Positions 3,238-56,135 of a stretch of DNA of 64,000 bases are shown piece after piece (the first letter of the stretch is position 1; each line of letters starts with the position of its first letter). This stretch comes from Nitrospirota bacterium (GTDB taxonomy: Bacteria > Nitrospirota > UBA9217). A program made the position numbers and the translations under genes. The DNA lies in the NCBI GenBank assembly GCA_963751455.1, contig CAVVUN010000009.1, positions 352,001 to 416,000 of the forward strand, read 5' to 3'. Below the pieces are notes generated by a model. The model did not search any database. It was not told the DNA's origin and was given only the letters and a program-made list of their open reading frames with translations.

Positions 3238-3337
3238 GGTTTGTCTGGTTTATCTGGTTTGTCTGGTTCAACTAAGCAAACCAAACAAACCAAAGAAACT
3301 AAAAACACCAAAGAAACTAAAGAAACGAAATAAACTA
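3238..3337. repeat. 9-nt-period inverted repeat element (GGTTTGTCT arm, then AAACCAAAC arm)
   Basis: GGTTTGTCT GGTTTATCT GGTTTGTCT followed by AAACCAAAC AAACCAAAG AAACTAAAA..., between hldA and rmlA. Confidence 0.9.
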
Positions 3338-4808: not shown

Positions 4809-4881
4809 CGTTTGTTTGGTTTGTTTAGTTTGTTTGGTTAACCAGATAAACTAAATGAACCAGATAAACCAGACAAACTGA
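4809..4881. repeat. 9-nt-period inverted repeat element
   Basis: GTTTGTTTGGTTTGTTTAGTTTGTTTGGTT then AACCAGATAAACTAAATGAACCAGATAAACCAGACAAAC, between rmlC and rmlD. Confidence 0.9.
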
Positions 4882-5734: not shown

Positions 5735-6877
5735 ATGCACATAAACCAGACGGATAATTCCGGCAGACCGGCGGTGTCGGCCAATATCCTGGTGACAGGC
5801 GGGGCGGGTTTTATCGGCTCTAATTTCATCAGGCACATTATCACGAAACAGGATTTTTGCGGCATTGTCGTCAATCTCGATAAGCTTACGTACGCCGGCA
5901 ACATGATGAATCTTGCCGACATAGAAAACAAATTCGGCGGCAAAAATTATTTTTTTGAACTCGGCGACATCTGCGATTTTGACAAGGTAAGAGCGGTGTT
6001 CGATAAATATCACATCAACATCGTCGTGCATTTTGCCGCTGAAAGCCATGTCGACCGTTCAATCTTCGGACCAAAGGAATTTGTAGAGACAAACGTCAAA
6101 GGCACTTTCTGCATGCTTGAGACTGCGCGGCAAACATGGAGCAACCGCAAGGATGTACGGTTTCACCACATCAGCACCGATGAAGTGTATGGTTCCCTGG
6201 GAAAAACAGGGTTCTTCCTGGAAACAACACCTTACGACCCGCGGAGCCCTTATTCAGCTTCCAAAGCCGCTTCAGACCACCTCGTAAACGCATACTTTCA
6301 TACCTACGGACTGCCGATCACGATTTCCAATTGTTCAAACAACTACGGTCCCTATCACTTTCCGGAGAAGTTGATCCCGCTCACGATCCTGAACGCTGTT
6401 GAGGGGAAACAACTGCCTATATACGGAGACGGCAAAAATGTCCGCGACTGGCTCTATGTCGAGGACCATTGCGAAGCTATCTGGACGATACTTTCCAGAG
6501 GAAAACCGGGCGAAACGTACAACATCGGCGGCGAATGCGAGAAGCGCAATATCGATGTGGTGAACGAGATATGCGCCGTCCTTGAGAAAGTATATCCCGC
6601 GAGCGAAAATCCCGCAATCCGCAATCCGCAATCCGCAATCCGCAATTACACGGATCTGATCACGTTTGTTTCGGATCGACCGGGTCATGACCGTCGTTAC
6701 GCCATTAACTGCGACAAGATCAAGAATGCTCTGGGGTGGAAACAAAATCACGACTTTGAAAAGGGTCTGAAAAATACCGTTGACTGGTTTCTCAAAAACA
6801 CGGACTGGGTAAATAACGTCAGAAGCGGCGAATATAAGAAGTGGCTGGAAAAAAACTATTCAGGCAGGACATCATGA
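5735..6877 (+). CDS. rmlB: dTDP-glucose 4,6-dehydratase
   Basis: [39 protein letters not shown] and [10 protein letters not shown] motifs; start placed at the ATG at 5735. Confidence 0.95.
6612..6646 (+). repeat. (CCGCAAT)x5 heptamer tandem repeat inside rmlB
   Basis: Five perfect copies, translated in frame as [12 protein letters not shown]. Confidence 0.95.
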
Positions 6878-8224: not shown

Positions 8225-8400
8225 AGTTTATCAGTATGTCTGGTTTGTTTGATTAATTTGGTTTGTCTGGTTTGTCTAGTTTGTTTGGTTTGCCTGGCTC
8301 ATTTGATTCAAAACAAACTAAACAAACCAAAGAAACTAAAGAAACTTTAATCAACAAAACAACCCAAATAAACTAAAGAAACCAAATCAACTAAATCAAC
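8225..8400. repeat. 9-nt-period inverted repeat element (long)
   Basis: GGTTTGTCT-type units followed by AAACTAAAC/AAACCAAAG-type units, between ugd and uxs. Confidence 0.9.
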
Positions 8401-8415
8401 TTTTTGGAGTAATTC

Positions 8416-9345: not shown

Positions 9346-9463
9346 TCGTCCATCGGCTACGGCAACGAGGCCCGTATCGTTAAGCGTTAAGCGGATACGG
9401 ACTGCCCAACACGAACGCCGTAACCCAACCACGAAACGGGCATCGTAACCGTGACCTTTTAAC
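9345..9463 (+). repeat. Dispersed copy of the CCCGTATCGT...ACGGGCATCGTAACC family
   Basis: ACGAGGCCCGTATCGT ... CGAAACGGGCATCGTAACC..CCTTTTAA matches the cores of the 19.2-19.8 kb repeat unit. Confidence 0.8.
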
Positions 9464-10291: not shown

Positions 10292-11941
10292 ATGGAAAAG
10301 AAAAAACCTCCGACAAAGTACATTTTCGTGACGGGCGGAGTCGTTTCATCGCTCGGCAAGGGGCTTGCGGCGGCGTCCATAGGCGCTCTGCTCGAGAGCA
10401 GGGGGGTAAAGGTTACCTTTCTCAAGCTTGATCCTTACATAAATGTCGACCCCGGCACCATGAGTCCGTTTCAGCACGGAGAGGTTTATGTAACAGATGA
10501 CGGCGCCGAGACCGACCTCGATCTCGGACATTACGAACGGTATACGAACGTCACGACCGGTCAGAAGAACAACTTTACTTCCGGCAGGATATATAACAAC
10601 GTAATCAGCAAGGAACGAAGAGGGGACTATCTGGGTGGAACGGTTCAGGTGGTACCGCACGTTACGGATGAAATCAAGCGCGCGATTACGGACCTCGCCG
10701 ACGATGAGGAGGTCGTGATCGTCGAGATCGGCGGGACCATCGGCGACATAGAAAGTCTTCCGTTTTTGGAAGCCATCAGGCAATTGAGATATAATCTCGG
10801 CCGGCAAAATGTCCTGTATGTCCATCTTACGCTGGTGCCGTTTATAAAAGCTGCGGATGAGCTTAAGACTAAACCAACCCAGCACAGCGTCAAGGAACTG
10901 CTGTCCATAGGGATCCAGCCGAACATTCTGGTTTGCCGGAGCGAACGGCCCATACCGAAGGAGATGAAACGGAAGATTGCGCTCTACTGCAATGTTGAAG
11001 AGAATGCCGTTATCACCGCACTGGACGTCGATACCATATACGAGGTACCGATCCACCTGCATGAGGAAGGGATCGATGACAGGATAGTCGAGTTGCTCAA
11101 TCTTACCGTATCGGACCACAACCTGAACGCATGGGAAACGATCGTCCAGCGCGTCAAGCACCCGTCAAAGAACGTTACTATAGCCCTTGTCGGGAAATAC
11201 GTTGATCTCAAAGAAGCATATAAAAGCCTGTGTGAAGCATTGACCCACGGCGGCATAGCGAACGAAGCCCGTGTCGCAATCAACTGGGTGGATTCTGAAG
11301 ACATCGAGAGCAGGGGCGCTGAAGAAATGCTGAAAGGCGCCGATGGTATTCTCGTACCGGGCGGGTTCGGAATACGCGGCGTGGAAGGTAAAATCGCGGC
11401 CGTTAAATACGCCCGGGAAAGAAAGATACCGTATTTCGGGATCTGTCTCGGAATGCAATGTGCGGTGATCGAAGCAGCCCGCAATCTTGCGGACATCAAG
11501 GATGCGAACAGTTCCGAATTTGATCAGCAGACTCCCAATCCCGTCATTTACCTGATCGAGCAGTGGTTCGATTACCGGACCCAGTCGGTTCAAAAACGCG
11601 ACACAAGCTGCGATAAAGGCGGGAGCATGCGCCTCGGTTCCTATCCATGCAACATAGAAAAGGGCACTAACGCTTATCGGGCATACGGGAAAAATGCTAT
11701 TACCGAACGGCATCGCCACCGCTACGAGTTCAATAACCGTTACACGGAAACATTAAAAAAGGCCGGACTCGTTATCAGCGGTATTTCTCCGGACGGCGAA
11801 CTGGTAGAGATCGTGGAATACAAGGAACATCCCTGGTTTCTCGGCTGTCAGTTCCATCCGGAATTCAAATCGAGACCGCGCAATCCTCATCCCTTGTTCA
11901 CGGCGTTCATCGATGCGGCGCTGAAGAATAAGAGAAAATAG
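10292..11941 (+). CDS. pyrG: CTP synthase
   Basis: [44 protein letters not shown] and QFHPEF motifs. Confidence 0.98.
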
Positions 11942-12064
11942 TTTGTTTAGTTAGTTTGGTTTTTTTAGTTTCTTTGGTTTGTTTAGTTTCTTTTCGTTTC
12001 TTTGGTTTGTTTAGTTTCTCTAGCTTAAGGATAACGAAATAAACCAAACAAACAAGACAAACCG
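11941..12064. repeat. 9-nt-period inverted repeat element
   Basis: GTTTGTTTAGTTAGTTTGG... arm then AACGAAATAAACCAAACAAAC... arm, between pyrG and kdsA. Confidence 0.88.
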
Positions 12065-12083
12065 TTTTTTAAAGGCAATTAAT

Positions 12084-12908: not shown

Positions 12909-12993
12909 TTCAGAGAGTTTGTTTAGTTTTTTTGGTTTCTTTGGTTTAGAACCAGATAAGCCAAATAAACCAGACAAACGACATAAACCAAAA
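12906..12993. repeat. 9-nt-period inverted repeat element
   Basis: AGTTTGTTTAGTTTTTTTGGTTTCTTTGGTTT then AACCAGATAAGCCAAATAAACCAGACAAAC, between kdsA and kdsD. Confidence 0.88.
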
Positions 12994-13966: not shown

Positions 13967-13968
13967 TA

Positions 13969-14024
13969 TGGAGCGAGCCGACCGCGTCGGCGTAAAAATA
14001 CGGCAACACGGTTGCCTTGGTCCA
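13969..14024. repeat. REP/REPIN-like palindrome pair upstream of the RAYT-like gene
   Basis: TGGA-gcga-GCCGAC cgc GTCGGC ... GGCAAC acg GTTGCC-ttgg-TCCA. Confidence 0.75.
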
Positions 14025-14035
14025 AAATATAATGT

Positions 14036-14578
14036 ATGGAAAAATATAAGACGTACGCTCATACGCTGCCTCATTTATATCGTGCTAATGCTAAATATTT
14101 TATAACTGCATCAACATACGAAAAAAAGAAGATTTTTGACAATGCTGCCAAAGAGAAATAGTTATCTTGTCTACTCAAAGCCTGTTTGAACCAGGGATGG
14201 GAGCTTGAAGATTGGGTCATTCTTGATAATCATTACCATATAATGGTAAACGGACCTGGCAATGAAATATTTCTTTCGAAGTTTATCGCTGAATACCATA
14301 AATTTACGGCTTTGTTTATGAAGAAAAATTATGCCGAGCTGGCAAAACTGCCAAAGGTTTTTAACAATTATTGGGATACGTGTATTACGTATGAAAGATC
14401 ATATTTTGCCAGGTTGAATTATCTATACAATAATCCTGTTAAACATGGATATGTACGGAAGGCACATGATTATGAATGGGGCAGTTTCTTTATCAGATAT
14501 AACGAAGATGAACTTTCTATAGATAAGCTGCTGAATCAGTTTCCTTGTGATACGGTTAACATAGAAGACGATTTTTAA
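14036..14578 (+). pseudogene. REP-associated (Y1/HUH) tyrosine transposase-like gene with an in-frame TAG at 14159-14161
   Basis: The ATG at 14036 is in frame with ORF 14186..14578; YFITASTY, WVILDNHYH (HUH) and YLYNNPVKHGYV..DYEWGS motifs; one premature stop. Confidence 0.8.
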
Positions 14579-16595: not shown

Positions 16596-16712
16596 GTTTA
16601 TTTAGTTTGTCTTGTTTGTCGGGTTTATCTGGTTTGAAACCAAAGAAACTAAACAAACCAAATGAACTAAACAAACCCAACAAACCAAACAAACGAAACA
16701 AACCAAATGAAC
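16596..16712. repeat. 9-nt-period inverted repeat element overlapping the plsY start
   Basis: GTTTATTTAGTTTGTCTTGTTTGTCGGGTTTATCTGGTTT then AAACCAAAGAAACTAAACAAACCAAATGAAC... Confidence 0.9.
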
Positions 16713-17306
16713 TTCTTCTATCAACCCCTTGCCGTCATCATTTCCTATCTTATCGGAAGCACTCCGTTCGGTGTCATTTTCACGAGATTCTTTTCGGATA
16801 TCGACGTCAGGACCGTGGGAAGCGGCAATATCGGAGCAACGAATGTCCTGCGGGCCGCAGGGAAAAAGGCGGCCATACTTACTTTACTCTCTGACTGTCT
16901 GAAAGGTGTGATTCCGGTTCTTGTGGTCAAGACCCTTTTACAGGATGATTGGACAACGGTTGCCTCTGGGGCGGCCGCTGTTTTGGGTCATAATTTCCCC
17001 ATTTATCTCAAGTTTAAAGGAGGGAAGGGCGTGGCAACAAGCTACGGAGTAGTCCTTGCCATAGTTCCCAAAATAGGCGTTATCTGTCTGGTCGCATGGC
17101 TGGCTGCCGCTCTTGTCTGGCGTTATTCGTCCCTGTCCGCGCTTGCTTCCTTCGCGCTCTTTCCGCTACTGACCTTCATCACTTTCCCTGAATCCAAGCC
17201 GCTCGGTCTTCTATCTCTCTTCGTATTCGGCATGATCTATTACCGGCACCGGGAAAACATCAAGCGACTTATCGCAGGGACGGAGCCGAAGATAGGAAAG
17301 AAATAA
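16707..17306 (+). CDS. plsY: Glycerol-3-phosphate acyltransferase
   Basis: SYLIGS.PFG, GSGNIGATNVLR, GHNFPIYLKFKGGKGVAT and RHRENIKRL motifs. Confidence 0.95.
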   Translation: MNFFYQPLAVIISYLIGSTPFGVIFTRFFSDIDVRTVGSGNIGATNVLRAAGKKAAILTLLSDCLKGVIPVLVVKTLLQDDWTTVASGAAAVLGHNFPIYLKFKGGKGVATSYGVVLAIVPKIGVICLVAWLAAALVWRYSSLSALASFALFPLLTFITFPESKPLGLLSLFVFGMIYYRHRENIKRLIAGTEPKIGKK

Positions 17307-17314
17307 CGGTTTAT

Positions 17315-17446
17315 AATCGCCATTTCGGTCCGACGGTAACGAAGCCCGTATCGTGGAACGTCAGACGGTAACGTAAAAGACCTCATATACGACAACCGTA
17401 ACCAAAAACCAAAAGGGGCATCGTAACCCTAACCTTTTAAACCCGG
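17315..17446 (+). repeat. Dispersed CCCGTATCGT family copy directly upstream of four-helix-bundle gene 1
   Basis: ACGAAGCCCGTATCGTGGAA ... GACCTCA...ACGACAACCGTAACCAAAAACCAAAAGGGGCATCGTAACC..CCTTTTAAACC. Confidence 0.88.
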
Positions 17447-17767
17447 CATACGTTCTCAAACTTGAGGGCAAAATGGTTGACACTAAAAAGCGCATAACGA
17501 GTTTTCGTGATTTAGAAGTTTACCAAAGCACGTATTCGATTTGTATAAAAGTAATGACTGAATTGCTGCCTAAATTGCCAGATATGGAAAAATACGATTT
17601 AAGAGACCAATTAAGCAGATCATCGAAAGCCATCCCCAGGCTAATCGCGGAAGGATATGGGAAACGGCATCAAAAAGCCGGGTTTCAAAAATATCTTGAT
17701 GATGCCATGGCAGAATGCAACGAAACCATGGTAGGTTTGGAAATGTGTCGCGATATTTATAAAAAAC

Positions 17768-19098
17768 CAGTAGTGTCCGGTTATCGTTTTTTTAATGTGC
17801 GATAACTCGCTGTCATTCAAAGATAAAAGAGACTGTATGCAACTTTTCGATTTGAACTTAATTTATCCAGAATCATCCTATAATCCACCTCATCTATGCA
17901 TGAGGAGGGACGAAGATGAATTCCGGAAAGACGGTTTTTGCTCAGCTGATCCAGCATCTACCACGGTACGAGTTCAACCAATGCGTCCTTCGTTATCACG
18001 GCAATCACAAAGTCAGAAGCTTTTCATGCATGGATCAGTTTCTCTGCATGGCATTTGCCCAGCTGACCTATCGCGAAAGCTTGCGCGATATTGTAACGTG
18101 TCTCAACTCCCATCGACCAAAGCTTTACCACATGGGCTTTCGAGGGAAGGTCGCCAAATCCACGTTGGCGGACGCCAACGAGCTTCGAGACTTCCGCATC
18201 TATCAGGACTTCGGCTATTTGCTCATCGACATCGCCAGCAAACTTTATCGGAACGAGGAGTTTGGCCTCGACCTGAAGCTCTCGGTCTTTGCGCTGGACT
18301 CAACGATCATCGATCTTTGCCTTTCCACGTTCCCTTGGGCGACGTTTCGGAAAAAGAAAGCAGCCGTCAAGATTCACACTTTGCTCAACGTGCAGGGATC
18401 GATTCCAACCTTTATTTTCGTGACTCCCGGCAGCGTTCACGATGTCAATATGATGGATACTGTCCCGTTCGAAGCCGAATCGGTCTATACAATGGATCGC
18501 GCTTACCTCGACTTCGAGCGACTTTACCAAATCGATCAACTGTCCGCGTTCTTCGTTATCAAGAGCAAAAGCAATACCCGGCTTCGTCGCGTCTACTCTG
18601 CTCCCGTGGACAAAGCCGACGGGGTGCAAGCCGATCAGACGGTTATGCTCATTGGCTACAAATCCCGCAAGGCTTATCCAGATCCATTTCGTCGGGTGCG
18701 CTATTACGACACCGAACGAAACAAACGCTTGGTGGTTCTTACGAACAATTTCCTTATCCCGGCCAAAACAGTCGCGGATATTTATCGCTCGCGTTGGCAG
18801 GTAGAGCTGTTCTTCAAGTGGATCAAGCAACACTTGCGGATCAAGTCGTTCTTCGGGACATCTCCGAATGCGGTCAAGATCCAAATCTGGATTGCCGTAA
18901 GCGTTTATCTCCTCGTGGCGATTGTCAAGAAGAGATTGAATCTGCCCGGCAGCCTCCACACAATTCTACAGATTTTGGAGGTCAACCTTTTTGAGAAAAT
19001 ACCGATTTCTCAACTGGTTGAAGACACTATCAATCACGAAAACGAATATCGCGACGATAACCAATTGAATCTATTTACGTAACAACCGGACACTACTG
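17768..19098 (+). mobile_element. IS4-family insertion sequence
   Basis: IRs CAGTAGTGTCCGGTT / AACCGGACACTACTG; 9-bp TSD ATAAAAAAC at 17759-17767 and 19099-19107. Confidence 0.95.
17916..19082 (+). CDS. IS4-family DDE transposase (DUF4372 N-terminus)
   Basis: MNSGKTVFAQL, FAQLTYRESLRDI, ALDSTII, MDRAY and Y..RWQVELFFKWIKQHL motifs. Confidence 0.95.
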   Translation: MNSGKTVFAQLIQHLPRYEFNQCVLRYHGNHKVRSFSCMDQFLCMAFAQLTYRESLRDIVTCLNSHRPKLYHMGFRGKVAKSTLADANELRDFRIYQDFGYLLIDIASKLYRNEEFGLDLKLSVFALDSTIIDLCLSTFPWATFRKKKAAVKIHTLLNVQGSIPTFIFVTPGSVHDVNMMDTVPFEAESVYTMDRAYLDFERLYQIDQLSAFFVIKSKSNTRLRRVYSAPVDKADGVQADQTVMLIGYKSRKAYPDPFRRVRYYDTERNKRLVVLTNNFLIPAKTVADIYRSRWQVELFFKWIKQHLRIKSFFGTSPNAVKIQIWIAVSVYLLVAIVKKRLNLPGSLHTILQILEVNLFEKIPISQLVEDTINHENEYRDDNQLNLFT

Positions 19099-19212
19099 AT
19101 AAAAAACATATAATAGGCTTCCCAATCGATGAAACGATAGATCTCTACGACAAGGCAGGCAGACAAATATATAATCTTGCCAAAGCGTGGTCGCAGTTTA
19201 AGCGCGAAACCA

Positions 19213-19843
19213 GTAACCAAAAACCGAAACCGGCATCGTAACCTTTCAAACCGGTCATCGTCTGTTGGTGACGAAACCCGTATCGTGGAAAGCGACCTCA
19301 AACACGACAACCGTAACCAAAAACCGAAACGGGCATCGTAACCTTTTAAACCGGTCATCGTCTGTTGGTGACGAAACCCGTATCGTGGAAAGCGACCTCA
19401 AACACGACAACCGTAACCGAAAACCGAAACGGGCATCGTAACCTTTTAAACCGGTCATCGTCTGTTGGTGACGAAACCCGTATCGTGGAAAGCGACCTCA
19501 AACACGACAACCGTAACCAAAAAAACCGAAACGGGCATCGTAACCTTTTAAACCGGTCATCGTCTGTTGGTGACGAAACCCGTATCGTGGAAAGCGACCT
19601 CAAACACGACAACCCTAACCAAAAACCAAAACAGGCATCGTAACCTTTTAAACCGGTCATCGTCTGTTGGTGACGAAACCCGTATCGTGGAAAGCGACCT
19701 CAAACACGACAACCGTAACCAAAAAAACCGAAACGGGCATCGTAACCTTTTAAACCGGTCATCGTCTGTTGGTGACGAAACCCGTATCGTGGAAAGCGAC
19801 CTCAAACACGACAACCCTAACCAAAAACCAAAACAGGCATCGT
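19213..19843 (+). repeat. Tandem array of 100/102-bp units (6 full and 1 partial)
   Basis: Units start at 19213, 19313, 19413, 19513, 19615, 19715 and 19817; near-identical with no unique spacers. Confidence 0.97.
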
Positions 19844-20110
19844 TGTACGGGACAAGGAACCGCGGGTTGAATCCGAAATTATCGATATCTTTGTAGATGA
19901 AGAGATGGAAAGCGCTGGAAAGCGGAACATCATTCACTCCGGTCATAAAAGATATCAGGGCTTTCGAATTGGAAGAGAAATTTCACACCCCGTTTTACGA
20001 AAACATCTCCAAGGAAGGGGTGCCGCTATGACCCTGGAACCAAAGGACAAAAGATCACTGTTTGGTGATATCGAAGAACAGCATGGTTACTCTTGAAGAC
20101 GCAAAAGACG
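19839..20110 (+). pseudogene. Remnant of a nucleotidyltransferase (MNT)-HEPN pair
   Basis: IVVRDKEPRVESEIIDIFVDEEMES(GTS)FTPVIKD..TPFYENISKEGVPL*, with a ~10-bp duplication at 19906-19924 shifting the frame; ATGA-coupled MTLEPKDKRSL..LEDAK follows. Confidence 0.65.
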
Positions 20111-20250
20111 TTTCAAAACACAAATCTTATCTTAAGATTATCTGACCTGCTTTTACCAGTCGCTAAGAACTATGAACCCGAACTTCTGGGAAGGGTTGCC
20201 CTGCAATTCGGCAAACCGGACCGACCGGCCAAACGGGGCAGATTCGATAG

Positions 20251-20286
20251 ATTATCCTTGCTAAAAGGATAATACTATGATAAATT
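20251..20286 (+). promoter_or_regulatory. Putative sigma70 promoter with an overlapping palindromic operator
   Basis: TTGCTA-17bp-TAAATT with TGn extension; inverted repeat ATTATCCTT...AAGGATAAT spans the -35 box. Confidence 0.45.
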
Positions 20287-20293
20287 GTCCGCC

Positions 20294-21616
20294 ATGGAAG
20301 GACAATTTCGCGGGATCATCCGTCAGAAAATCATAGACTCATTGGCGGAGTCCGTGCCGGAATTCACGCGCCGGGACGTACGGCTGCCTGCGGTAAAAGG
20401 GAAGGCAACGGCGGTAATCGGCATGCGCCGCACAGGCAAATCCACCTTCCTCTGGCAGGTGCTGGCAGACCGGTTGGCGCGGGGCACAGGCCGGGAGGGG
20501 CTGCTTTTCTTCAGATTCGAGGACGAGCGCCTGGCCGGCATGACCGCCGCCGACCTCCACCTGATCGTTGAGGAATACTACCGTTTGCACCCGGAATGGA
20601 GAGACAGTCGGCGGGCCGTTTTCTTTCTGGACGAGATACAGGTGGTTCCAGGGTGGGAATCCTTTGCACGCCGTCTCCTTGACACGGAAAAGGTGGATCT
20701 GTTTCTCTCCGGCTCGTCGGCGCGTCTCCTCTCACGAGAAGTGACCACGAGCATGCGCGGCCGGGCCATGGAAGCATTGGTTCATCCCTTCAGCTTCCGC
20801 GAATATCTACGGCATTTCGGTCGCGAACCAAAGCTGGGGCCGGAGCGTCTCCCCAAAGCCGCACGTTCCGCCTTGGAGAAGGATTTACGGGAGTATCTGG
20901 CAGGCGGCGGTTTTCCCGAAGCCTTGGGCGTTGCCGCACGGGACCGCTTCGAGCTTTTACGCGGGTATGTGGATACGGCGCTCCTCAGGGATGTCATAGA
21001 GCGTTACTCGGTATCGCATCCTACGGCGCTCCGCTGGATGGTACGGCAGCTTCTCGGAAGCGCCGCCGGTGCGTTCAGCGTGAATAAGTTCCACGGTGAT
21101 CTCCGGTCACAGGGGGTCCATGTTGCCAAGGACACACTGCACGCTTATCTGAGCTATTTGGAAGATGCGTTTCTGATCCGCTCGGTTTTTCTCGCGTCCG
21201 CCTCGGAACGGCGCCGGATGGTGAACCCCCGCAAGGTGTACCCTATAGACCCGGGGTTGATCCCGGTCTTCGACCGGTCGGGGAAGGCAAATCTGGGCCA
21301 CGCCCTGGAAACCTGCGTGCTGTTGGATCTCGAACGGCGGGGGGCCGAGATTTCCTATGTTCGCACCGAAAGCGGGTTTGAGGTCGATTTTCTTGCCCGT
21401 TATCCCGATGGAAAAGAGGAACTGATTCAGGTATGCGCCGATCTGGATGTTCCCAATGTTCGGGAACGCGAAGCGCGCGCCCTTACGGAAGCTGCACGCG
21501 AACATCGCAGAGCGACTTTGCACATTGTCAGCCTCGATCCGGTAATCGCGCCCGATATTTCCAGAAATGTCACGCTTCATTCGGCAGCCGCATGGCTGTT
21601 GATGGAAAAACATTAA
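20294..21616 (+). CDS. AAA+ ATPase (AAA_14 plus DUF4143)
   Basis: GMRRTGKS Walker A, FFLDEIQ, SGSS, YL..GGFPE, KVY.IDPG and EVDF motifs. Confidence 0.88.
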   Translation: MEGQFRGIIRQKIIDSLAESVPEFTRRDVRLPAVKGKATAVIGMRRTGKSTFLWQVLADRLARGTGREGLLFFRFEDERLAGMTAADLHLIVEEYYRLHPEWRDSRRAVFFLDEIQVVPGWESFARRLLDTEKVDLFLSGSSARLLSREVTTSMRGRAMEALVHPFSFREYLRHFGREPKLGPERLPKAARSALEKDLREYLAGGGFPEALGVAARDRFELLRGYVDTALLRDVIERYSVSHPTALRWMVRQLLGSAAGAFSVNKFHGDLRSQGVHVAKDTLHAYLSYLEDAFLIRSVFLASASERRRMVNPRKVYPIDPGLIPVFDRSGKANLGHALETCVLLDLERRGAEISYVRTESGFEVDFLARYPDGKEELIQVCADLDVPNVREREARALTEAAREHRRATLHIVSLDPVIAPDISRNVTLHSAAAWLLMEKH

Positions 21617-21872
21617 ACTCAAATTAAACTCAAATTATGCTGTTTTATGAAAACATGACATGATCGCGCGGATGTTTTAGCGTCAAGGCAACCGCAGGGG
21701 CCAATCCGGAAACTCACGAAGGCGCTGTAACGATACGAACGAAGGTCCTCAACTCCTCAAAAAGAATTAAACTCGTAACTGACTGAATCAATCAAAGCAA
21801 TCCCGGTTTTTAGCCCGGAAAAGCGCTCCTGCCCTCTGCTCCCGACTCCGCAGCAAATATATTACATTGTTA

Positions 21873-21901
21873 TTGACATATTTTTGAAATAATATTACAC
21901 T
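21873..21901 (+). promoter_or_regulatory. Putative sigma70 promoter
   Basis: TTGACA-17bp-TACACT upstream of the ORF at 21934. Confidence 0.55.
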
Positions 21902-21933
21902 GCCAATGGAATATTTTGGGGAGCTGCTAACGA

Positions 21934-23244
21934 ATGCAAAAAAGACAATTGCAAGAGCTGATCGGTGAACACAAGGAAAGGGCTCTCTCCGGAAAGGGTT
22001 TTATCGCAAGAGAAGCGGCTGCGGACGCAGCGCGTCTTTTCAAGGAGCGGGAGATACATATCGTTACGGGCGTCAGGCGGTGCGGAAAGTCGACTCTGAT
22101 GCGCCTCTTGATGGAAAAGCTCGTCGCCGAACAGGGGGTAAAGCAAAAAAACATCCTGTACCTGAACTTCGACGACGAACGGTTTACGGAATTTGTTTCT
22201 TCCGACTTCCAAACTCTCTATGAGTCGTTTCTTGAGATCGAGTCGCCGAAAGGTAAAAAATACTTCTTTCTCGACGAGATTCAAAACATTACCGGCTGGC
22301 ACCGGTGGATCAATCGGTTATACGAGTTCGAGGACGTCAAAATCTTTTTGACGGGTTCAAACGCGTCGCTTCTCAGCGGAGAAATCGCAACCACACTAAC
22401 CGGCAGAAACCGCGTCATCGAGCTGTATCCGTTTTCTTTCAGAGAGTTTTTGGCCGCGAGGGGATTCACAGTGAGCGCAAGAGATGCTCTTGTGTCGGAG
22501 CGAAGGGCGTTGATACGGCGGCTTCTACAGGAATACCTTACAACGGGCGGCTTCCCGGAAGTCGTGAAGACGGGAGATCTCTCTCTGCTCCAGCATTACT
22601 TCAAGGATATTCTCTATCGGGACATTATCGCGCGGTATGGCGTTAGAAATATCCGGGAGATAAAAGAACTCGTCCTGTTTCTGGCATCGAATCTTGCAAG
22701 CATTGCGAGCTATAAAAGACTGAAAGACGTCATATCGGTCAACAGCCAGTCAACGGTAAAAAACTACCTTTCCCATTTGGAGGACGTATACCTCTTTTTC
22801 GCGACCGACCTGTTCGATTACTCGTTGAAGCGGCAAATGTACAATCCCTCGAAGGTCTACTGTGTCGACCACGCGCTGGCCGGTTCCATGGCATTCAGAT
22901 TTTCATCCGAGCTCGGGAGGACCCTGGAGAACATCGTCTTTCTTGAATTAAAAAGAAGAGGGCGGGATATCTACTATTGGAAAGGGCTGAAGGGCGAAGA
23001 GACGGATTTTTTGCTGAAACAGGGAAGAAAAATAACGGCGGCCATTCAGGTATCATATGACGTAAATGCTGTTGAGACGAAACAGCGGGAATCTGTCGGC
23101 GCTGTTCAAGCGGCAAGGGAATTCGGGTTGAAAAATGCCATCGTGATCAATTCGGATTACAGCGGAGAGGAAAAATCCGGGGGTATAACAATACGCTATG
23201 TTCCACTCTGGCAATGGCTGACAACCGCAGCCTTAGAACTGTGA
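21934..23244 (+). CDS. AAA+ ATPase (AAA_14 plus DUF4143), second paralog
   Basis: GVRRCGKS, FFLDEIQ, TGSNASLL, GGFPE, KVY.VD, LEN.VFLEL and ETDF motifs. Confidence 0.88.
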   Translation: MQKRQLQELIGEHKERALSGKGFIAREAAADAARLFKEREIHIVTGVRRCGKSTLMRLLMEKLVAEQGVKQKNILYLNFDDERFTEFVSSDFQTLYESFLEIESPKGKKYFFLDEIQNITGWHRWINRLYEFEDVKIFLTGSNASLLSGEIATTLTGRNRVIELYPFSFREFLAARGFTVSARDALVSERRALIRRLLQEYLTTGGFPEVVKTGDLSLLQHYFKDILYRDIIARYGVRNIREIKELVLFLASNLASIASYKRLKDVISVNSQSTVKNYLSHLEDVYLFFATDLFDYSLKRQMYNPSKVYCVDHALAGSMAFRFSSELGRTLENIVFLELKRRGRDIYYWKGLKGEETDFLLKQGRKITAAIQVSYDVNAVETKQRESVGAVQAAREFGLKNAIVINSDYSGEEKSGGITIRYVPLWQWLTTAALEL

Positions 23245-23372
23245 ACTCAGAACAAGGCTAAGAACTGAAATTTACAATTTGCATTCGGCCGCGGCCAACG
23301 GCCGCGATATTATATATAACACCGGCAACTTGATTGACAAATTATCTTGAATTTTTCGTTTTAGTTTTTAGG

Positions 23373-23404
23373 TTGACTTTGTTACAAGTAATACGTATAT
23401 TACT
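23373..23404 (+). promoter_or_regulatory. Toxin-antitoxin promoter with autoregulatory operator
   Basis: TTGACT-17bp-TATATT; palindrome AGTAAT-acgtat-ATTACT overlaps the -10 box. Confidence 0.6.
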
Positions 23405-23429
23405 GGTAATACCATTTCGGAGGTAAGAA

Positions 23430-23675
23430 ATGTCAACGGTAACGAAAAAAGGACAGGTTACAATACCAAAATCGTACCGCGACCGGCTCCATATCAGGGA
23501 AGGCGACAGCCTTGATTTCGAGGTTAAGGATAATCTTCTCATCCTGAAACGAAAAGAACGGAAGTCAATTCTCAGCCTGGGGGGAATCGCTCAGGGGAGA
23601 GCGAGAGGAGCAGGGAACGAACGGGAGTATGCCAAAAAAGCAGTTGCACGTAAGATTGCCGGGGAAGGCCTGTAA
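23430..23675 (+). CDS. AbrB/MazE/SpoVT family antitoxin
   Basis: STVTKKGQVTIPK..RDRL.I.EGD.L.F motif. Confidence 0.9.
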   Translation: MSTVTKKGQVTIPKSYRDRLHIREGDSLDFEVKDNLLILKRKERKSILSLGGIAQGRARGAGNEREYAKKAVARKIAGEGL

Positions 23676-23677
23676 AC

Positions 23678-24091
23678 ATGGAAGACCCGATATTCGTGGA
23701 CACCAACGTGTTTCTTCGTTTTTTTGTCAAGGATGTTGAACCTCAGTATGAGAAAGCCGGAAGCTTATTTGAAAGAGCGGAAGCCGGAAAGCTTAAACTC
23801 GAAACGAGTGAACTGGTTATCGCCGAGATCGTGTGGGTGCTCGAATCTTTCTACGGTTTTACAAAAAAAGAAATAGTAGAAGTGCTTACTATCCTCCTGG
23901 AATCAAGAAATCTTAAAATCGAGAGCGCCTCCCGTATCGCCGCCGCAGTAGAAATCTATTCATCAAGGAACATTGATTTTATAGACGCATACAATATCGC
24001 GTACATGAAATCCAAATCGTATAAAAAAGTGGCCACATTCGATATCAAGCATTATAAAAATATCGATGGAATAATCACCACCATGAACTAA
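23678..24091 (+). CDS. PIN-domain (VapC) toxin
   Basis: FVDTNVFLR, VIAEIVWVL, DFIDAY and ATFD motifs; coupled to the antitoxin. Confidence 0.9.
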   Translation: MEDPIFVDTNVFLRFFVKDVEPQYEKAGSLFERAEAGKLKLETSELVIAEIVWVLESFYGFTKKEIVEVLTILLESRNLKIESASRIAAAVEIYSSRNIDFIDAYNIAYMKSKSYKKVATFDIKHYKNIDGIITTMN

Positions 24092-24160
24092 GCGAGCCTT
24101 TATTGGGTTCGATAAACGACAAGCGGACCGGAGCAGGCGTGTAGCCTGCAGTCGCTCAGG

Positions 24161-24331
24161 GCGGAATTTCTCCAGGCAGCCGTTGAAATGGCTAAATTCA
24201 GGAATCGGTTGACTCATGTCTATTGGGAAGTTGATGATAAATTTCTCTTCCAAATTCTTCAAACACGAATGGACGATTTCGCCGTTTTTATCAAAAATAT
24301 CGCGGTTTTTCTTCAGTTAGACGCTCTTTGA
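24161..24331 (+). pseudogene. C-terminal fragment of a DUF86/HepT HEPN RNase
   Basis: AEFLQAAVEMAKFRNRLTHVYWEVDD.. carries the HEPN R-x4-H motif; no N-terminal half is present. Confidence 0.65.
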
Positions 24332-24338
24332 GCTCCTT

Positions 24339-24430
24339 TGCCCTCTGCTTTTCCAACTGACAACTCCGAACTGAGAACTCAAAACTGCTTTTTGGTATTG
24401 CCCTCTGCGCTATGCCCCATGCGCTCTGCT
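24339..24430 (+). repeat. Two adjacent degenerate 7-nt-period tracts
   Basis: AACTGAC AACTCCG AACTGAG AACTCAA AACTG and TGCCCTC TGCGCTA TGCCCCA TGCGCTC TGC. Confidence 0.7.
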
Positions 24431-24543
24431 CTTAAACTGGACGAAATAGTGAGGACAGGTGTTCGAAAATTTACTCTTTCGTAGTTTACTTTAGCGTCCT
24501 TTTGTCGTATATTAATCGCAACTTTCTGAAGCTATGTTCATTC

Positions 24544-24645
24544 CAAACCAAACAAACCAGAGAAACCAAATTAACCAAACAAACTCTTACGGTTTCCAAA
24601 CCAAACAAACCAAATAAACCAAACAAACCGGATAAGCCGGAACTG
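24544..24645 (+). repeat. 9-nt repeat tract (A/C-rich arm only) upstream of four-helix-bundle gene 2
   Basis: AAACCAAAC AAACCAGAG AAACCAAAT TAACCAAAC ... AAACCGGAT. Confidence 0.9.
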
Positions 24646-24647
24646 AT

Positions 24648-25076
24648 ATGAAAATAACCCGATTTGAAGAGATGGAATGCTGGAAAGAGTCAAGAAAATT
24701 AGTAGACATGATATACAAAGCCATTCAGTCAAATAAATCATTTCAGTCAGATTATCGGTTAAAAGATCAGAGTATCGGCGCTGCTGTATCAGTAATGGGA
24801 AACATCCCGGAGGGATTTGTACGACGTTCGAATAAAGAATTTATACAGTTTCTATTTATCTCGATGTCCTCTGCCGCCGAATTACAGTCTCACCTGTATG
24901 TCGCACTTGATCAGCACTATATCTCTCAGGACACCTTCTCAACAATCTATCAACAAGCTGTGAAAACATCCAAAATAGTATCCGGCCTCATTACATATTT
25001 ACGTAACAATGTCAGCGGTTCCAAACGGATTTCTAATAAACCAAACAAACCAGACAAACTAAATAAACCGGAATAA
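24648..25076 (+). CDS. Four-helix-bundle protein 2 (23S rRNA-IVP/TIGR02436-like), intact
   Basis: ITRFEEMECWK, DYRLKDQ..GAAVSVMGNIPEGF.R.SNKEFIQFL.IS.SSAAELQSHLYVALDQ.YI motifs; C-terminal NKPNKPDKLNKPE is encoded by the 9-nt repeat. Confidence 0.92.
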   Translation: MKITRFEEMECWKESRKLVDMIYKAIQSNKSFQSDYRLKDQSIGAAVSVMGNIPEGFVRRSNKEFIQFLFISMSSAAELQSHLYVALDQHYISQDTFSTIYQQAVKTSKIVSGLITYLRNNVSGSKRISNKPNKPDKLNKPE

Positions 25077-25199
25077 CCAAAATATCAAACAAACAAAACA
25101 AACCAAATAATCCAGAGCAACCAAACAAACCAAATAAACCAGAGAAACTAGATGAACCAAACAAACCAGAAAAACGAAACAAACCAAACAAACCAGAAA
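25036..25199 (+). repeat. 9-nt repeat tract spanning the FHB2 stop and the wzi start
   Basis: Long run of AAACCAAAC/AAACCAGAN-type units. Confidence 0.92.
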
Positions 25200-26735
25200 A
25201 ACATTTTTATTAACTTATTCGCCATACTAACCGTCCTATGCTTCTCAACAACCATCCACGCCTCAACATATATAGCCATTGAGGATACTATCGTTTACGA
25301 CCTCCTGAACAAGCTCGAAGCCGAAAGCGTTATCCAATCCGGTCTTCTCAATACCAAACCGATCAGCAGAAAGGAAGCGTTTCGGCTCCTTCAAGAAGCA
25401 GAAGCGAATTCCGAATCCCGCAGCGAATTTATAAAAAACTTGATCCGGACACTTAAGGATAGGCTGGGACCGGATCCATCAAGTGGAACGCAATTAAAAC
25501 CGATTGATTCAATCTATGCAAAATATATCCATACCAATGCGGAAGTTCATACACTGAAATATGGCGAGTCCATTCAAAATCAACAACCGTTTAACTACAA
25601 CAACAACGGAGATCTCTATCAGCGCGGATCAAATGAGAGGATCGGTTTTACGTCGCGGTTGGAAAACTGGGGACCGCTTTCGCTAGAAGTAAACCCGGAA
25701 TTCCGCTATCCCGACACGCCCTTTACCAATCAAGACCTGGTCACCAGGAAGGCCTATGCAGTCCTGGACCTCGGATGGGACGTTGTCCTCGGACAAGACT
25801 CCCAATGGTGGGGTCCCGGATACCATGGCGCTTTGCTGCTATCGAACAACGCCGAACCCTTTACCATGCTCAAGATATCAAATCCCAGCCCTGTCCGCCT
25901 TCCCTGGATTTTCGACAGCCTAGGCCCATTCGGGTTCACGTTCTTTGTTACAAACCTGGAGAAAGCGAGAAAAATTCCGGAACCGTATTTATACGGCATG
26001 AGGTTCGACTTTAAACCGCATCCCAACGTTGAAATCGGTCTGCAGAAGACCGCGTTTCTCGGTGGACGAGCAGGCCGTCCCGAAAATGCCAAGATATGGC
26101 TGCAGAGTTTGTATGGTGCGAATGATGCTGATAACTGCTACGCCGGAGAGGGCTGCTATAAAAAGGAGCCCGGTGACCAGCGGGCGGGGATCGACTTCAA
26201 GCTTACTGTTCCTTGGAATGTTCAGCCGATGCAAATCTATCTTGAAGCCGACGGAGAAGACGAATACCACAATCTGCCGAACCTCTGGGCGTTTATCGGA
26301 GGAATCTACCTGCCCAGGATATTAAATGAAGAGCGTCTCGATTTCAGGATGGAATACACAACTACGCGGGGCAGAAAGAGGAACCCTTATATCTGGTATC
26401 TTCATCACCTCTATTCAGGCTATACTTACAATGGGAACATTATCGGCCATCATGTAGGCACCGACGCTAATGACTTTTTCAGCGAGGTTTCGTATTTAAT
26501 GCAAGAGAGAACCGGTAAAATTTCCCTGTCATATCATAGGGAAGAGCACGACATTTACATCCCGGGAAGCCACGAAAGATTGGAGGATATTACTGCAGGA
26601 ATTATTTTGTCTTTAATGAAACAGATCGATTTAGTAACCCGTTATAGCCGGGGATGGCTGAAAAACAAGGGTAATGCACCAGGTGATACAGTCAATCTCT
26701 TGAAATTCGGGATCGGAATAGAGTATCGATTTTAA
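25152..26735 (+). CDS. Capsule assembly Wzi family outer-membrane protein
   Basis: Signal peptide; QWWGPGYHGALLLSNNAEP motif; GHHVG.DA; terminal aromatic EYRF. Confidence 0.85.
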   Translation: MNQTNQKNETNQTNQKNIFINLFAILTVLCFSTTIHASTYIAIEDTIVYDLLNKLEAESVIQSGLLNTKPISRKEAFRLLQEAEANSESRSEFIKNLIRTLKDRLGPDPSSGTQLKPIDSIYAKYIHTNAEVHTLKYGESIQNQQPFNYNNNGDLYQRGSNERIGFTSRLENWGPLSLEVNPEFRYPDTPFTNQDLVTRKAYAVLDLGWDVVLGQDSQWWGPGYHGALLLSNNAEPFTMLKISNPSPVRLPWIFDSLGPFGFTFFVTNLEKARKIPEPYLYGMRFDFKPHPNVEIGLQKTAFLGGRAGRPENAKIWLQSLYGANDADNCYAGEGCYKKEPGDQRAGIDFKLTVPWNVQPMQIYLEADGEDEYHNLPNLWAFIGGIYLPRILNEERLDFRMEYTTTRGRKRNPYIWYLHHLYSGYTYNGNIIGHHVGTDANDFFSEVSYLMQERTGKISLSYHREEHDIYIPGSHERLEDITAGIILSLMKQIDLVTRYSRGWLKNKGNAPGDTVNLLKFGIGIEYRF

Positions 26736-54714: not shown

Positions 54715-54970
54715 ATCGTCGAAGTTATCGTTGTTCGTCTCACGCATCGAGTCCCGTATCGAATAGATTCAGCGATGAGCACGAACCACGTGACCATAAA
54801 CCGAAACGGGCGTCAGAACCCTAGCCGGTTTACCACTTGACCATCCTTGAAACGGTAGTTCGTCTAAGGGAACGAAGCCCGTATCGTGGACCGTAAAAGC
54901 GGTTTACGGTTAAAGCCGAACAACGACCAACCGATCGCCGAAACGGGCATCCCAACCTTAACCTTTTTAA
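54715..54970 (+). repeat. Two diverged copies of the CCCGTATCG...CCGAAACGGG family
   Basis: GTCCCGTATCGAA...CCGAAACGGGCGTC and ACGAAGCCCGTATCGTGGA...CCGAAACGGGCATCCCAACC..CCTTTTTAA. Confidence 0.78.
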
Positions 54971-56044: not shown

Positions 56045-56135
56045 TGGTTTGTTTGGTTTGTTTGGTTTGTTTGGTTTGTTTGGTTTGTTTGGTTTTGGTT
56101 TCTGTAACCAAATAAACCCGACAAACCAAACAAAC
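56045..56135. repeat. 9-nt-period inverted repeat element between lon and lipA
   Basis: (GGTTTGTTT)x5 then AACCAAATAAACCCGACAAACCAAACAAAC. Confidence 0.92.

Follow-up and report, generated by a model that had tools for sequence, protein, structure and literature searches.

Why should each of two genes for four-helix-bundle (FHB) proteins be flanked by its own family of short repeats, copies of which also stand, without a gene, at other gene junctions? The question is raised by a 64,000-nt stretch of a Nitrospirota bacterium genome (contig CAVVUN010000009.1, positions 352,001 to 416,000), here called the window, which amounts to 1.1% of the source genome (G000) and carries the two genes, FHB1 and FHB2. 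Both belong to family PF05635, for which we know of no function since its discovery in rRNA intervening sequences (IVS); to our knowledge, the origin of short-period intergenic repeat arrays is likewise not known. Our answer is that an FHB gene and its inverted arms form one compact cassette, with the arm type fixed in each protein clade. This cassette is, in our cautious judgement, rather probably a selfish mobile element from which hairpin copies without the gene have spread to junctions between genes, and a protein with the fold of Avd, from diversity-generating retroelements (DGRs), may recognize its own element. [quoted passage not shown] Gene names used below (pyrG, kdsA, plsY, rmlC and others) are labels for Pfam and NCBIfam matches.

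Organization of the FHB1 and FHB2 cassettes

The FHB2 gene (24648-25076, forward strand) is intact and scores 96.7 bits against PF05635 and 94.9 bits against TIGR02436, both above the curated cut-offs; both memberships had been proposed by a first-pass annotation of the window. The 9-nt repeat family (family B) that this annotation placed on both sides of the gene is present as an upstream array at 24544-24629 and a downstream array at 25038-25195, both on the forward strand. The downstream array comprises 17.7 copies and extends into the start of wzi. The two arrays run in the same direction, whereas the gene-less family-B copies are inverted pairs. Just upstream of the first array, nested 7-mer repeats at 24330-24440 represent two further arm families, also gene-less. 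The FHB cassettes are flanked by plsY and wzi and are not within an rRNA gene; Rfam finds one tRNA only in the window.

Family A accompanies FHB1. Its motifs, CCCGTATCGT and ACGGGCATCGTAACC, had been described as a short-period family; the motifs are real, but they are the left and right arms of one 19-bp imperfect inverted repeat and are not tandem. The family does flank FHB1, as described, but the gene placed at 17473-19241 is not a single open reading frame (ORF). An IS4-type insertion sequence (IS; DUF4372 and DDE_Tnp_1) splits it at 17768-19098, with the transposase at 17916-19082, 15-bp terminal inverted repeats and a 9-bp target duplication (17759-17767 and 19099-19107). The 5′ part (17473-17767), which encodes helices 1-3, matches the PF05635 profile of Pfam with 64.6 bits (cut-off 33.8), and the 3′ part (19099-19243) encodes helix 4 and the tail, its stop codon lying within a family-A right arm (19225-19243). 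All of these features are on the forward strand. The insertion is recent, since a second, identical copy of the element is found on contig C1 of the source genome. Of the two genes in the window, FHB2 is thus the intact one, FHB1 having been inactivated recently by the IS.

The order of the FHB1 locus is left arm, spacer, right arm, FHB1, stop-bearing right arm and 6.3 tandem gene-less units. The first three make up a gene-less family-A element directly upstream of FHB1 (17335-17428, forward strand; left arm 17335-17353, right arm 17410-17428). The tandem units (19208-19843, forward strand) repeat a 100-bp sequence, composed of a gene-less A element and a linker, with 95% matches, and the first two are identical at 99 of 100 bases. 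A CRISPR array was considered for this region and rejected, as whole units are alike and there are no unique spacers. The last codons of both genes are encoded by repeat DNA, as had been noticed earlier: these are the tail SNQKPKPAS (stop) in FHB1 and NKPNKPDKLNKPE (stop) in FHB2.

Repeat type follows protein clade

A set of 251 unique intact FHB genes was collected from relatives and metagenomes; for FHB2 it includes the best 80 of at least 592 metagenome loci, and for FHB1 it includes 78 genome loci taken from the best 80 of 360. Left out were 35 loci without a unique intact gene (duplicates, broken genes and suffix-domain forms), and 7 rows with short flanks reduced the set to 244 loci with sufficient flank. 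Scans of viral contigs found no relatives of the FHB1 or FHB2 clade. The A motif, which was refined by eye on the same loci on which it was scored, stands on both sides of 62 of 86 FHB1-query loci, but of none of the 82 FHB2-query loci, 76 other FHB loci or 500 control ORFs. A period of 9, called where the score exceeded the 95th percentile of the control ORFs (n = 500), characterizes 73 of 82 FHB2-query loci, 2 of the 76 others and none of the 86 FHB1-query loci. The other FHB loci mostly have period 7 (48) or 8 (9). The predicted enrichment of these repeats beside FHB genes in other genomes is therefore real.

The predicted correlation between repeat type and FHB clade is also found. In a quick IQ-TREE run on 244 rows and only 121 columns, from which the broken FHB1 of the window is absent, the FHB1 clade has an SH-aLRT support of 100 and 73 of its 79 rows carry A, while a 78-row group around FHB2 (support 85) has period 9 in 74 rows. 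Placing the repeat labels on this tree requires 41 changes, compared with a mean of 134 for shuffled labels, and periods 6, 7, 8 and 9 each follow protein branches. Below 80% protein identity (68 loci, at least 17 named phyla), A arms are 0.68-0.79 identical where four-fold sites are 0.28-0.30 identical, the arm values being raised by the choice of arms by motif match. Conservation of the arms despite saturated four-fold sites suggests sequence-specific recognition by something. Complementary ends around the PF05635 ORF are present at 68 loci of the FHB1 clade and at 40 of 75 nine-mer loci; in 24 of the 75, as at FHB2, the 160 nt upstream contain units of the same direction only.

The same coupling is visible at the level of whole genomes. 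Among 300 genomes of the phylum, in which kin are not independent, at least 10 B-pattern matches occur in 7 of 10 genomes with an FHB2-clade gene versus 2 of 290 others, although the reversed control of the B pattern also scores in repeat-rich genomes. All 3 genomes with an FHB1-clade gene have 10-16 A matches, and at least 7 are reached in 5 of the 297 others. Three genomes of one genus (G182, G195 and G272) carry a very high B load, with 114-162 pattern matches, and the FHB2-clade copy of G272 has a nonsense codon. Decay of FHB genes is frequent: 3 of 10 FHB2-clade relatives are broken, as are 2 of the 4 genes in the source genome that match PF05635 above the cut-off. Each of these 4 has, by eye, its own flanking repeat type.

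Some individual loci have further structure. At L003 (G000:C2:320592), a 9-mer hairpin without a gene, which resembles the arms beside GxxExxY genes (see below), interrupts an FHB gene that has 7-mer arms. Loci L005, L007 and L009 have weak PF05635 matches within longer ORFs; 9-mer palindromes mark the 5′ ends of L005 and L007, whose neighbors look, by eye, like restriction-modification genes.

Gene-less copies of the cassettes

The gene-less copies, or orphans, had been described as sitting at junctions through the envelope operons. Orphans are present at ten positions from 3238 to 56045 in the window, but they are not confined to envelope operons: of 22 A loci, 18 are found elsewhere in the genome, as are 11 of 20 B loci, and many of these adjoin housekeeping genes. 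Inverted B pairs are found between PfkB-family and nucleotidyltransferase genes (3238-3337), between rmlC and rmlD (4810-4878, a predicted 28-bp stem with z −8.4), after a UDP-glucose dehydrogenase gene (8237-8401), and between lon and a lipoyl-synthase-like gene, both on the reverse strand (56045-56135). Further B orphans occupy the pyrG/kdsA junction (11939-12070), where the orphan provides the stop of pyrG, the kdsA/kdsD junction (12916-12990) and the pgsA/plsY junction (16605-16707). Family A is represented by an element before kdsB (9361-9450) and by two tandem elements (54743-54957, starting at 54743 and 54868), all on the forward strand. A further repeat, five perfect copies of the 7-mer CCGCAAT, is located in the rmlB region (6612-6646), and this 7-mer is also found after a B orphan on contig C3.

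The source genome holds 22 A loci and 20 B loci, 4 and 9 of them inside the window. The strict B pattern forms 18 clusters genome-wide versus none in each of three local shuffles, and the paired A pattern occurs in 15 places versus none in one shuffle. The window, with 1.1% of the genome, has 7 of 18 B orphans, a strong enrichment, and 2 of 20 A orphans, a weak one. Elsewhere in the genome, A orphans adjoin pyrK-pyrD, dapA, lon, ftsEX, opp permeases, ftsA, pckG and ccsB, and B orphans adjoin glnD, uvrA-rlmI, murD-ftsW, aroF-tyrA, purE and a PEP-CTERM ATPase gene. B orphans are predicted to fold into stems of about 25-30 bp (z −2.9 to −8.4); for three A elements the folding is weaker (z −1.0 to −3.2). 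In being short, non-coding, multicopy and inverted-ended, the A and B elements resemble MITEs.

An alignment of A orphans (n = 36) reveals their anatomy: left arm, cassette leader, a short AT-rich join, codons of the C-terminal tail typical of the clade, and right arm, with an inner length of 47-50 nt in 17 of 36. The orphans are the cassette minus most of its ORF. They also share the direction of the cassette relative to host transcription (14 versus 2, with 4 unclear), and filled cassettes are co-oriented with both neighbors in 84 of 96 assignable loci (of 251). The possibility that the tail is a functional, conserved peptide was rejected: in only 13 of 42 A loci does the stop fall within or beyond the right arm, so the tails are not a conserved peptide.

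Filled and empty sites

The proposal of a repeat-flanked mobile cassette that leaves orphans behind is supported by this anatomy and by sites that are filled in some genomes and empty in others. Of 29 relatives, 21 have a tight pyrG/kdsA junction and 22 an overlap of kdsA and kdsD. Where these junctions are open, they mostly carry 7-mer or other hairpins, not the B pair, and the inserts usually provide the stop of the upstream gene. The pgsA/plsY junction is short in 13 of 25 relatives and contains B arrays in 2. The source genome holds FHB1 after plsY; neither an A arm (read by eye) nor an FHB1-clade gene is present in the first 200 nt after plsY in the 29 relatives. In one genus, 3 of the 6 genomes have an FHB1-clade gene between ruvA and ruvB and two congeners have short spacers; the source genome has a different element there. 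Sites filled in relatives are clean overlaps in the source genome.

A 199-bp unit that contains A recurs at unrelated loci with 92-96% identity. At one of three sites compared, 3 congeners lack the unit, and ATG stands at both of its ends. Its outer ends are not inverted, and the unit may for this reason be a composite moved by something else. On the reverse strand, the unit (L430-L437) terminates in a GGAGG motif and ATG, and a TTGACA hexamer lies near the opposite end, so that it may provide a start and a promoter box.

Protein fold and the RNA-stem test

AlphaFold2 models of FHB2 and of an intact FHB1 relative reached a predicted local distance difference test (pLDDT) score of 88.5 and 85.8, respectively. 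Their top Foldseek matches are Xcc0516 (2GSC) and BT_0352 (2RLD), with E above 0.001 for the FHB1-clade model, and the template modeling (TM) score on the target is 0.86-0.93 for Xcc0516 and 0.78-0.87 for Avd. At the level of predicted models, this confirms that the FHB proteins share the four-helix fold of Xcc0516, BT_0352 and Avd, the last as the first-pass annotation had it. The solved homologues 2GSC and 2RLD have 5 chains each.

Avd binds a stem-loop at the start of the Sp RNA of its DGR with all five protomers in contact, and flipped-out bases sit between the protomers (bioRxiv 2023.10.23.563531). Because Avd inserts flipped-out bases in this way, a reading of the arms in a periodic register has a precedent. 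In the A arm, positions 4, 9 and 16 are poorly paired; co-varying mismatches at these positions were considered and rejected, as the counts at position 16 fit independent A/T variation. A sense-strand excess of G·U pairs had appeared in single folds and vanished in a symmetric count, which gave 48 G·U versus 57 A·C for B and 35 versus 37 for A. G·U counts for filled cassettes are noisy, as the alignment threshold let through 201 of 500 controls as well. RNA pairing is therefore not shown to be the constrained level. Whole-flank duplex energies pointed to the sense strand for two groups but to the antisense strand for the third; being confounded by composition, they were set aside.

Weighing the explanations

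The selfish-element reading can be given a mechanism. An Avd-fold protein, probably a pentamer like Xcc0516 and Avd, would recognize its own arms as single-stranded or folded nucleic acid. It would then protect the arms or pass them to a host or trans-acting enzyme, such as a reverse transcriptase (RT) or an HUH/Y1 nuclease, and the cassette would persist in operons because it provides stop codons and start contexts. A bolder version, which we regard as doubtful, makes the cassette an autonomous, undescribed class of mobile element without a transposase. Here the Avd-like pentamer would read the repeat register of its own clade, with A positions 4, 9 and 16 as the flipped-out bases, and recruit a host RT or nuclease that copies full cassettes and gene-less hairpins into stop-start junctions.

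Several observations weigh against a selfish element that acts through its FHB protein. The sole clean insertion is the larger composite unit, whose mobility may come from other ends. No target duplication was seen at filled cassettes or at the window junctions compared with relatives. In 737 kb of flanks from 237 loci, there is no RT or Y1 transposase related to those of the source genome. Arm similarity falls with protein distance inside the 9-mer and 7-mer groups, and co-inheritance alone gives some clade signal because the arms are physically linked to the gene. The A motif was tuned on the tested loci, and picking arms by motif raises their measured identity. Some genomes are orphan-rich without a cognate gene (G182, with 147 matches, and G283 for B; G006, G004, G008, G087 and G001 for A), in assemblies that are 85-100% complete. 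Finally, GxxExxY (PF13366) genes in the source genome (L396-L400) each lie, by eye, between inverted short-repeat arms of their own and appear to be a parallel cassette class with an unrelated fold; the cassette layout thus does not depend on the FHB fold.

This last observation keeps alive the explanation in which the gene is a passenger. The arms would be ends like those of MITEs or repetitive extragenic palindromic (REP) elements, serving an unrelated transposase or a host enzyme; every arm family would once have captured an FHB gene, and the match with clade would reflect hitch-hiking. We consider this unlikely, although it accommodates the packaging of GxxExxY genes and the abundance and persistence of orphans in genomes that lack the gene. 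The source genome also has 6 RT and 33 Y1_Tnp matches elsewhere, and the equality of G·U and A·C counts is what DNA dyads predict. The passenger model fits less well with the protein itself, which remains 60-80% identical while synonymous sites saturate and is therefore under selection while travelling with its arms. Nor does it sit easily with the orphan abundance, which follows the cognate gene, or with periods 6, 7, 8 and 9, each of which follows protein branches.

A second alternative, which was part of the original proposal, is that FHB proteins are host RNA-binding regulators with sites in the repeats of long polysaccharide operons. The lean toward polysaccharide genes is real for family B and the FHB2 9-mer clade only. 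It is seen in the concentration of orphan B loci in the window and in the genes downstream of FHB2-clade cassettes. Of 27 such neighbors with annotation, 9 are sugar or polysaccharide genes, with 8 copies of a single NusG-paralogue locus in addition; the FHB1 clade has 2 of 23, and the sample covers 45 of 52 FHB2-clade and 43 of 63 FHB1-clade genes. The predicted folding of B hairpins is also in keeping with post-transcriptional control. However, FHB1 is broken in the window, A orphans mostly adjoin housekeeping genes, and B orphans also adjoin uvrA, aroF-tyrA, purE and glnD. In 21-22 of 29 relatives the same junctions are tight, the remainder have other repeat families there, orphans occur without a cognate gene, and a sense-strand G·U excess is absent. 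The lean could also come from local hopping, from carriage on polysaccharide clusters that are exchanged, or from antiterminated operons tolerating hairpins, and a regulatory role is in our view improbable. As a separate observation, a group of FHB2-clade cassettes (L025, L041, L043, L044, L046, L048 and related loci) has a conserved upstream GC-rich motif, which we take to be ops-like, on one side and a NusG paralogue on the other, at what looks like the start of a long operon.

The least probable explanation, and one to which we give very little credence, is an IVS moved into mRNA, with RNase III excising the long arm stem, the cut conferring tolerance and the protein dispensable: the Coxiella IVS, with its 28-bp terminal stem, heptamers before the S23p ORF and RNase III cleavage (PMC4990558), and the stems of about 25-30 bp predicted for B orphans would suit it, but the mismatches have no strand bias, the A arm is poorly paired at three positions, and nearly a third of the nine-mer loci (the 24 of 75 noted above, with the layout of FHB2) have only same-direction units upstream.

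Other features of the window

The DNA between the two cassettes (20285-24330, forward strand), located between plsY and wzi, carries two AAA_14/DUF4143 ATPase genes, a PIN gene with a small upstream ORF that is AbrB-like by eye, and a short broken ORF. In one relative (G192), wzi appears, by eye, to come straight after plsY. A broken Y1_Tnp remnant, similar to IS200 or to REP-associated tyrosine transposases (RAYTs), lies at 14087-14374, with a palindromic element just upstream (about 13968-14025). A similar element is present between ruvA and ruvB of the source genome and at the junctions of this operon in relatives.

Relation to known systems

REP/REPIN elements, with their RAYT proteins, resemble the orphans, as do MITEs. 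MITEs are short, non-coding, inverted-ended, intergenic and multicopy, resemble internal deletions of a gene-bearing partner, and are moved in trans (PMC10969869). The gene-bearing partner here differs in that it encodes no DDE or HUH transposase, and a target duplication is seen only at one composite unit. The closest published element is the ORF-bearing IVS of 23S rRNA (Coxiella burnetii helix 45 and Leptospira), whose S23p protein is PF05635. It has in common with the cassettes the protein family, tandem repeats of short period ahead of the start codon, a sporadic and horizontal spread, frequent decay of the ORF and, at many loci, complementary ends around the gene (PMC4990558). The cassettes described here, in contrast, lie between protein-coding genes, fall into clades with distinct arms (19-bp A; periods 6-9) and are accompanied by tens of gene-less copies in a genome.

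A link between PF05635 and Avd has been drawn previously (PMC10053308), and genes of the PF05635 type have been noted inside cas loci (PMC3936711). The likeness to Avd lies in the fold; Avd itself forms a pentamer and, with bases flipped out, binds a stem-loop in the RNA of its own element (bioRxiv 2023.10.23.563531). Sequence identity is about 12%, and no RT related to those of the source genome is found in the flanks of the 237 loci. A DGR was accordingly rejected: no RT adjoins the cassettes or lies on the same stretch of the source genome. Intergenic 7-mer arrays that have remained unexplained, TAACTGA in Beggiatoaceae and GGGAATC in Xanthomonas, are likewise of short period, placed at gene starts, sometimes in inverted pairs and patchy in their spread (PMC4679880, PMC4692102), whereas this window has a 9-mer family and one of non-periodic 19-mers. 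The main texts of these two reports make no mention of four-helix-bundle or intervening-sequence genes. A literature search, with supplements and most subscription journals outside its scope, returned no paper on a gene-plus-arms design in protein-coding operons. What the window adds is a non-periodic arm of 19 bp that is kept across phyla, a clade with 9-mers, the structure of the orphan join, the repeated reuse of coupled junctions and a negative RNA-stem test.

Two clades with sharply different conserved arms allow a clean reciprocal binding test, and the family-A arm is the easier substrate than the drifting heptamers because it is a defined 19-bp site kept across many phyla. The findings caution against taking such repeats to be regulatory because they occur in polysaccharide operons, and they imply that repeat-encoded tails of predicted proteins are by-products of stop codon position. 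If the autonomous version of the selfish-element reading were true, it would give PF05635 a function and would explain the origin of intergenic arrays of 6- to 9-base repeats.

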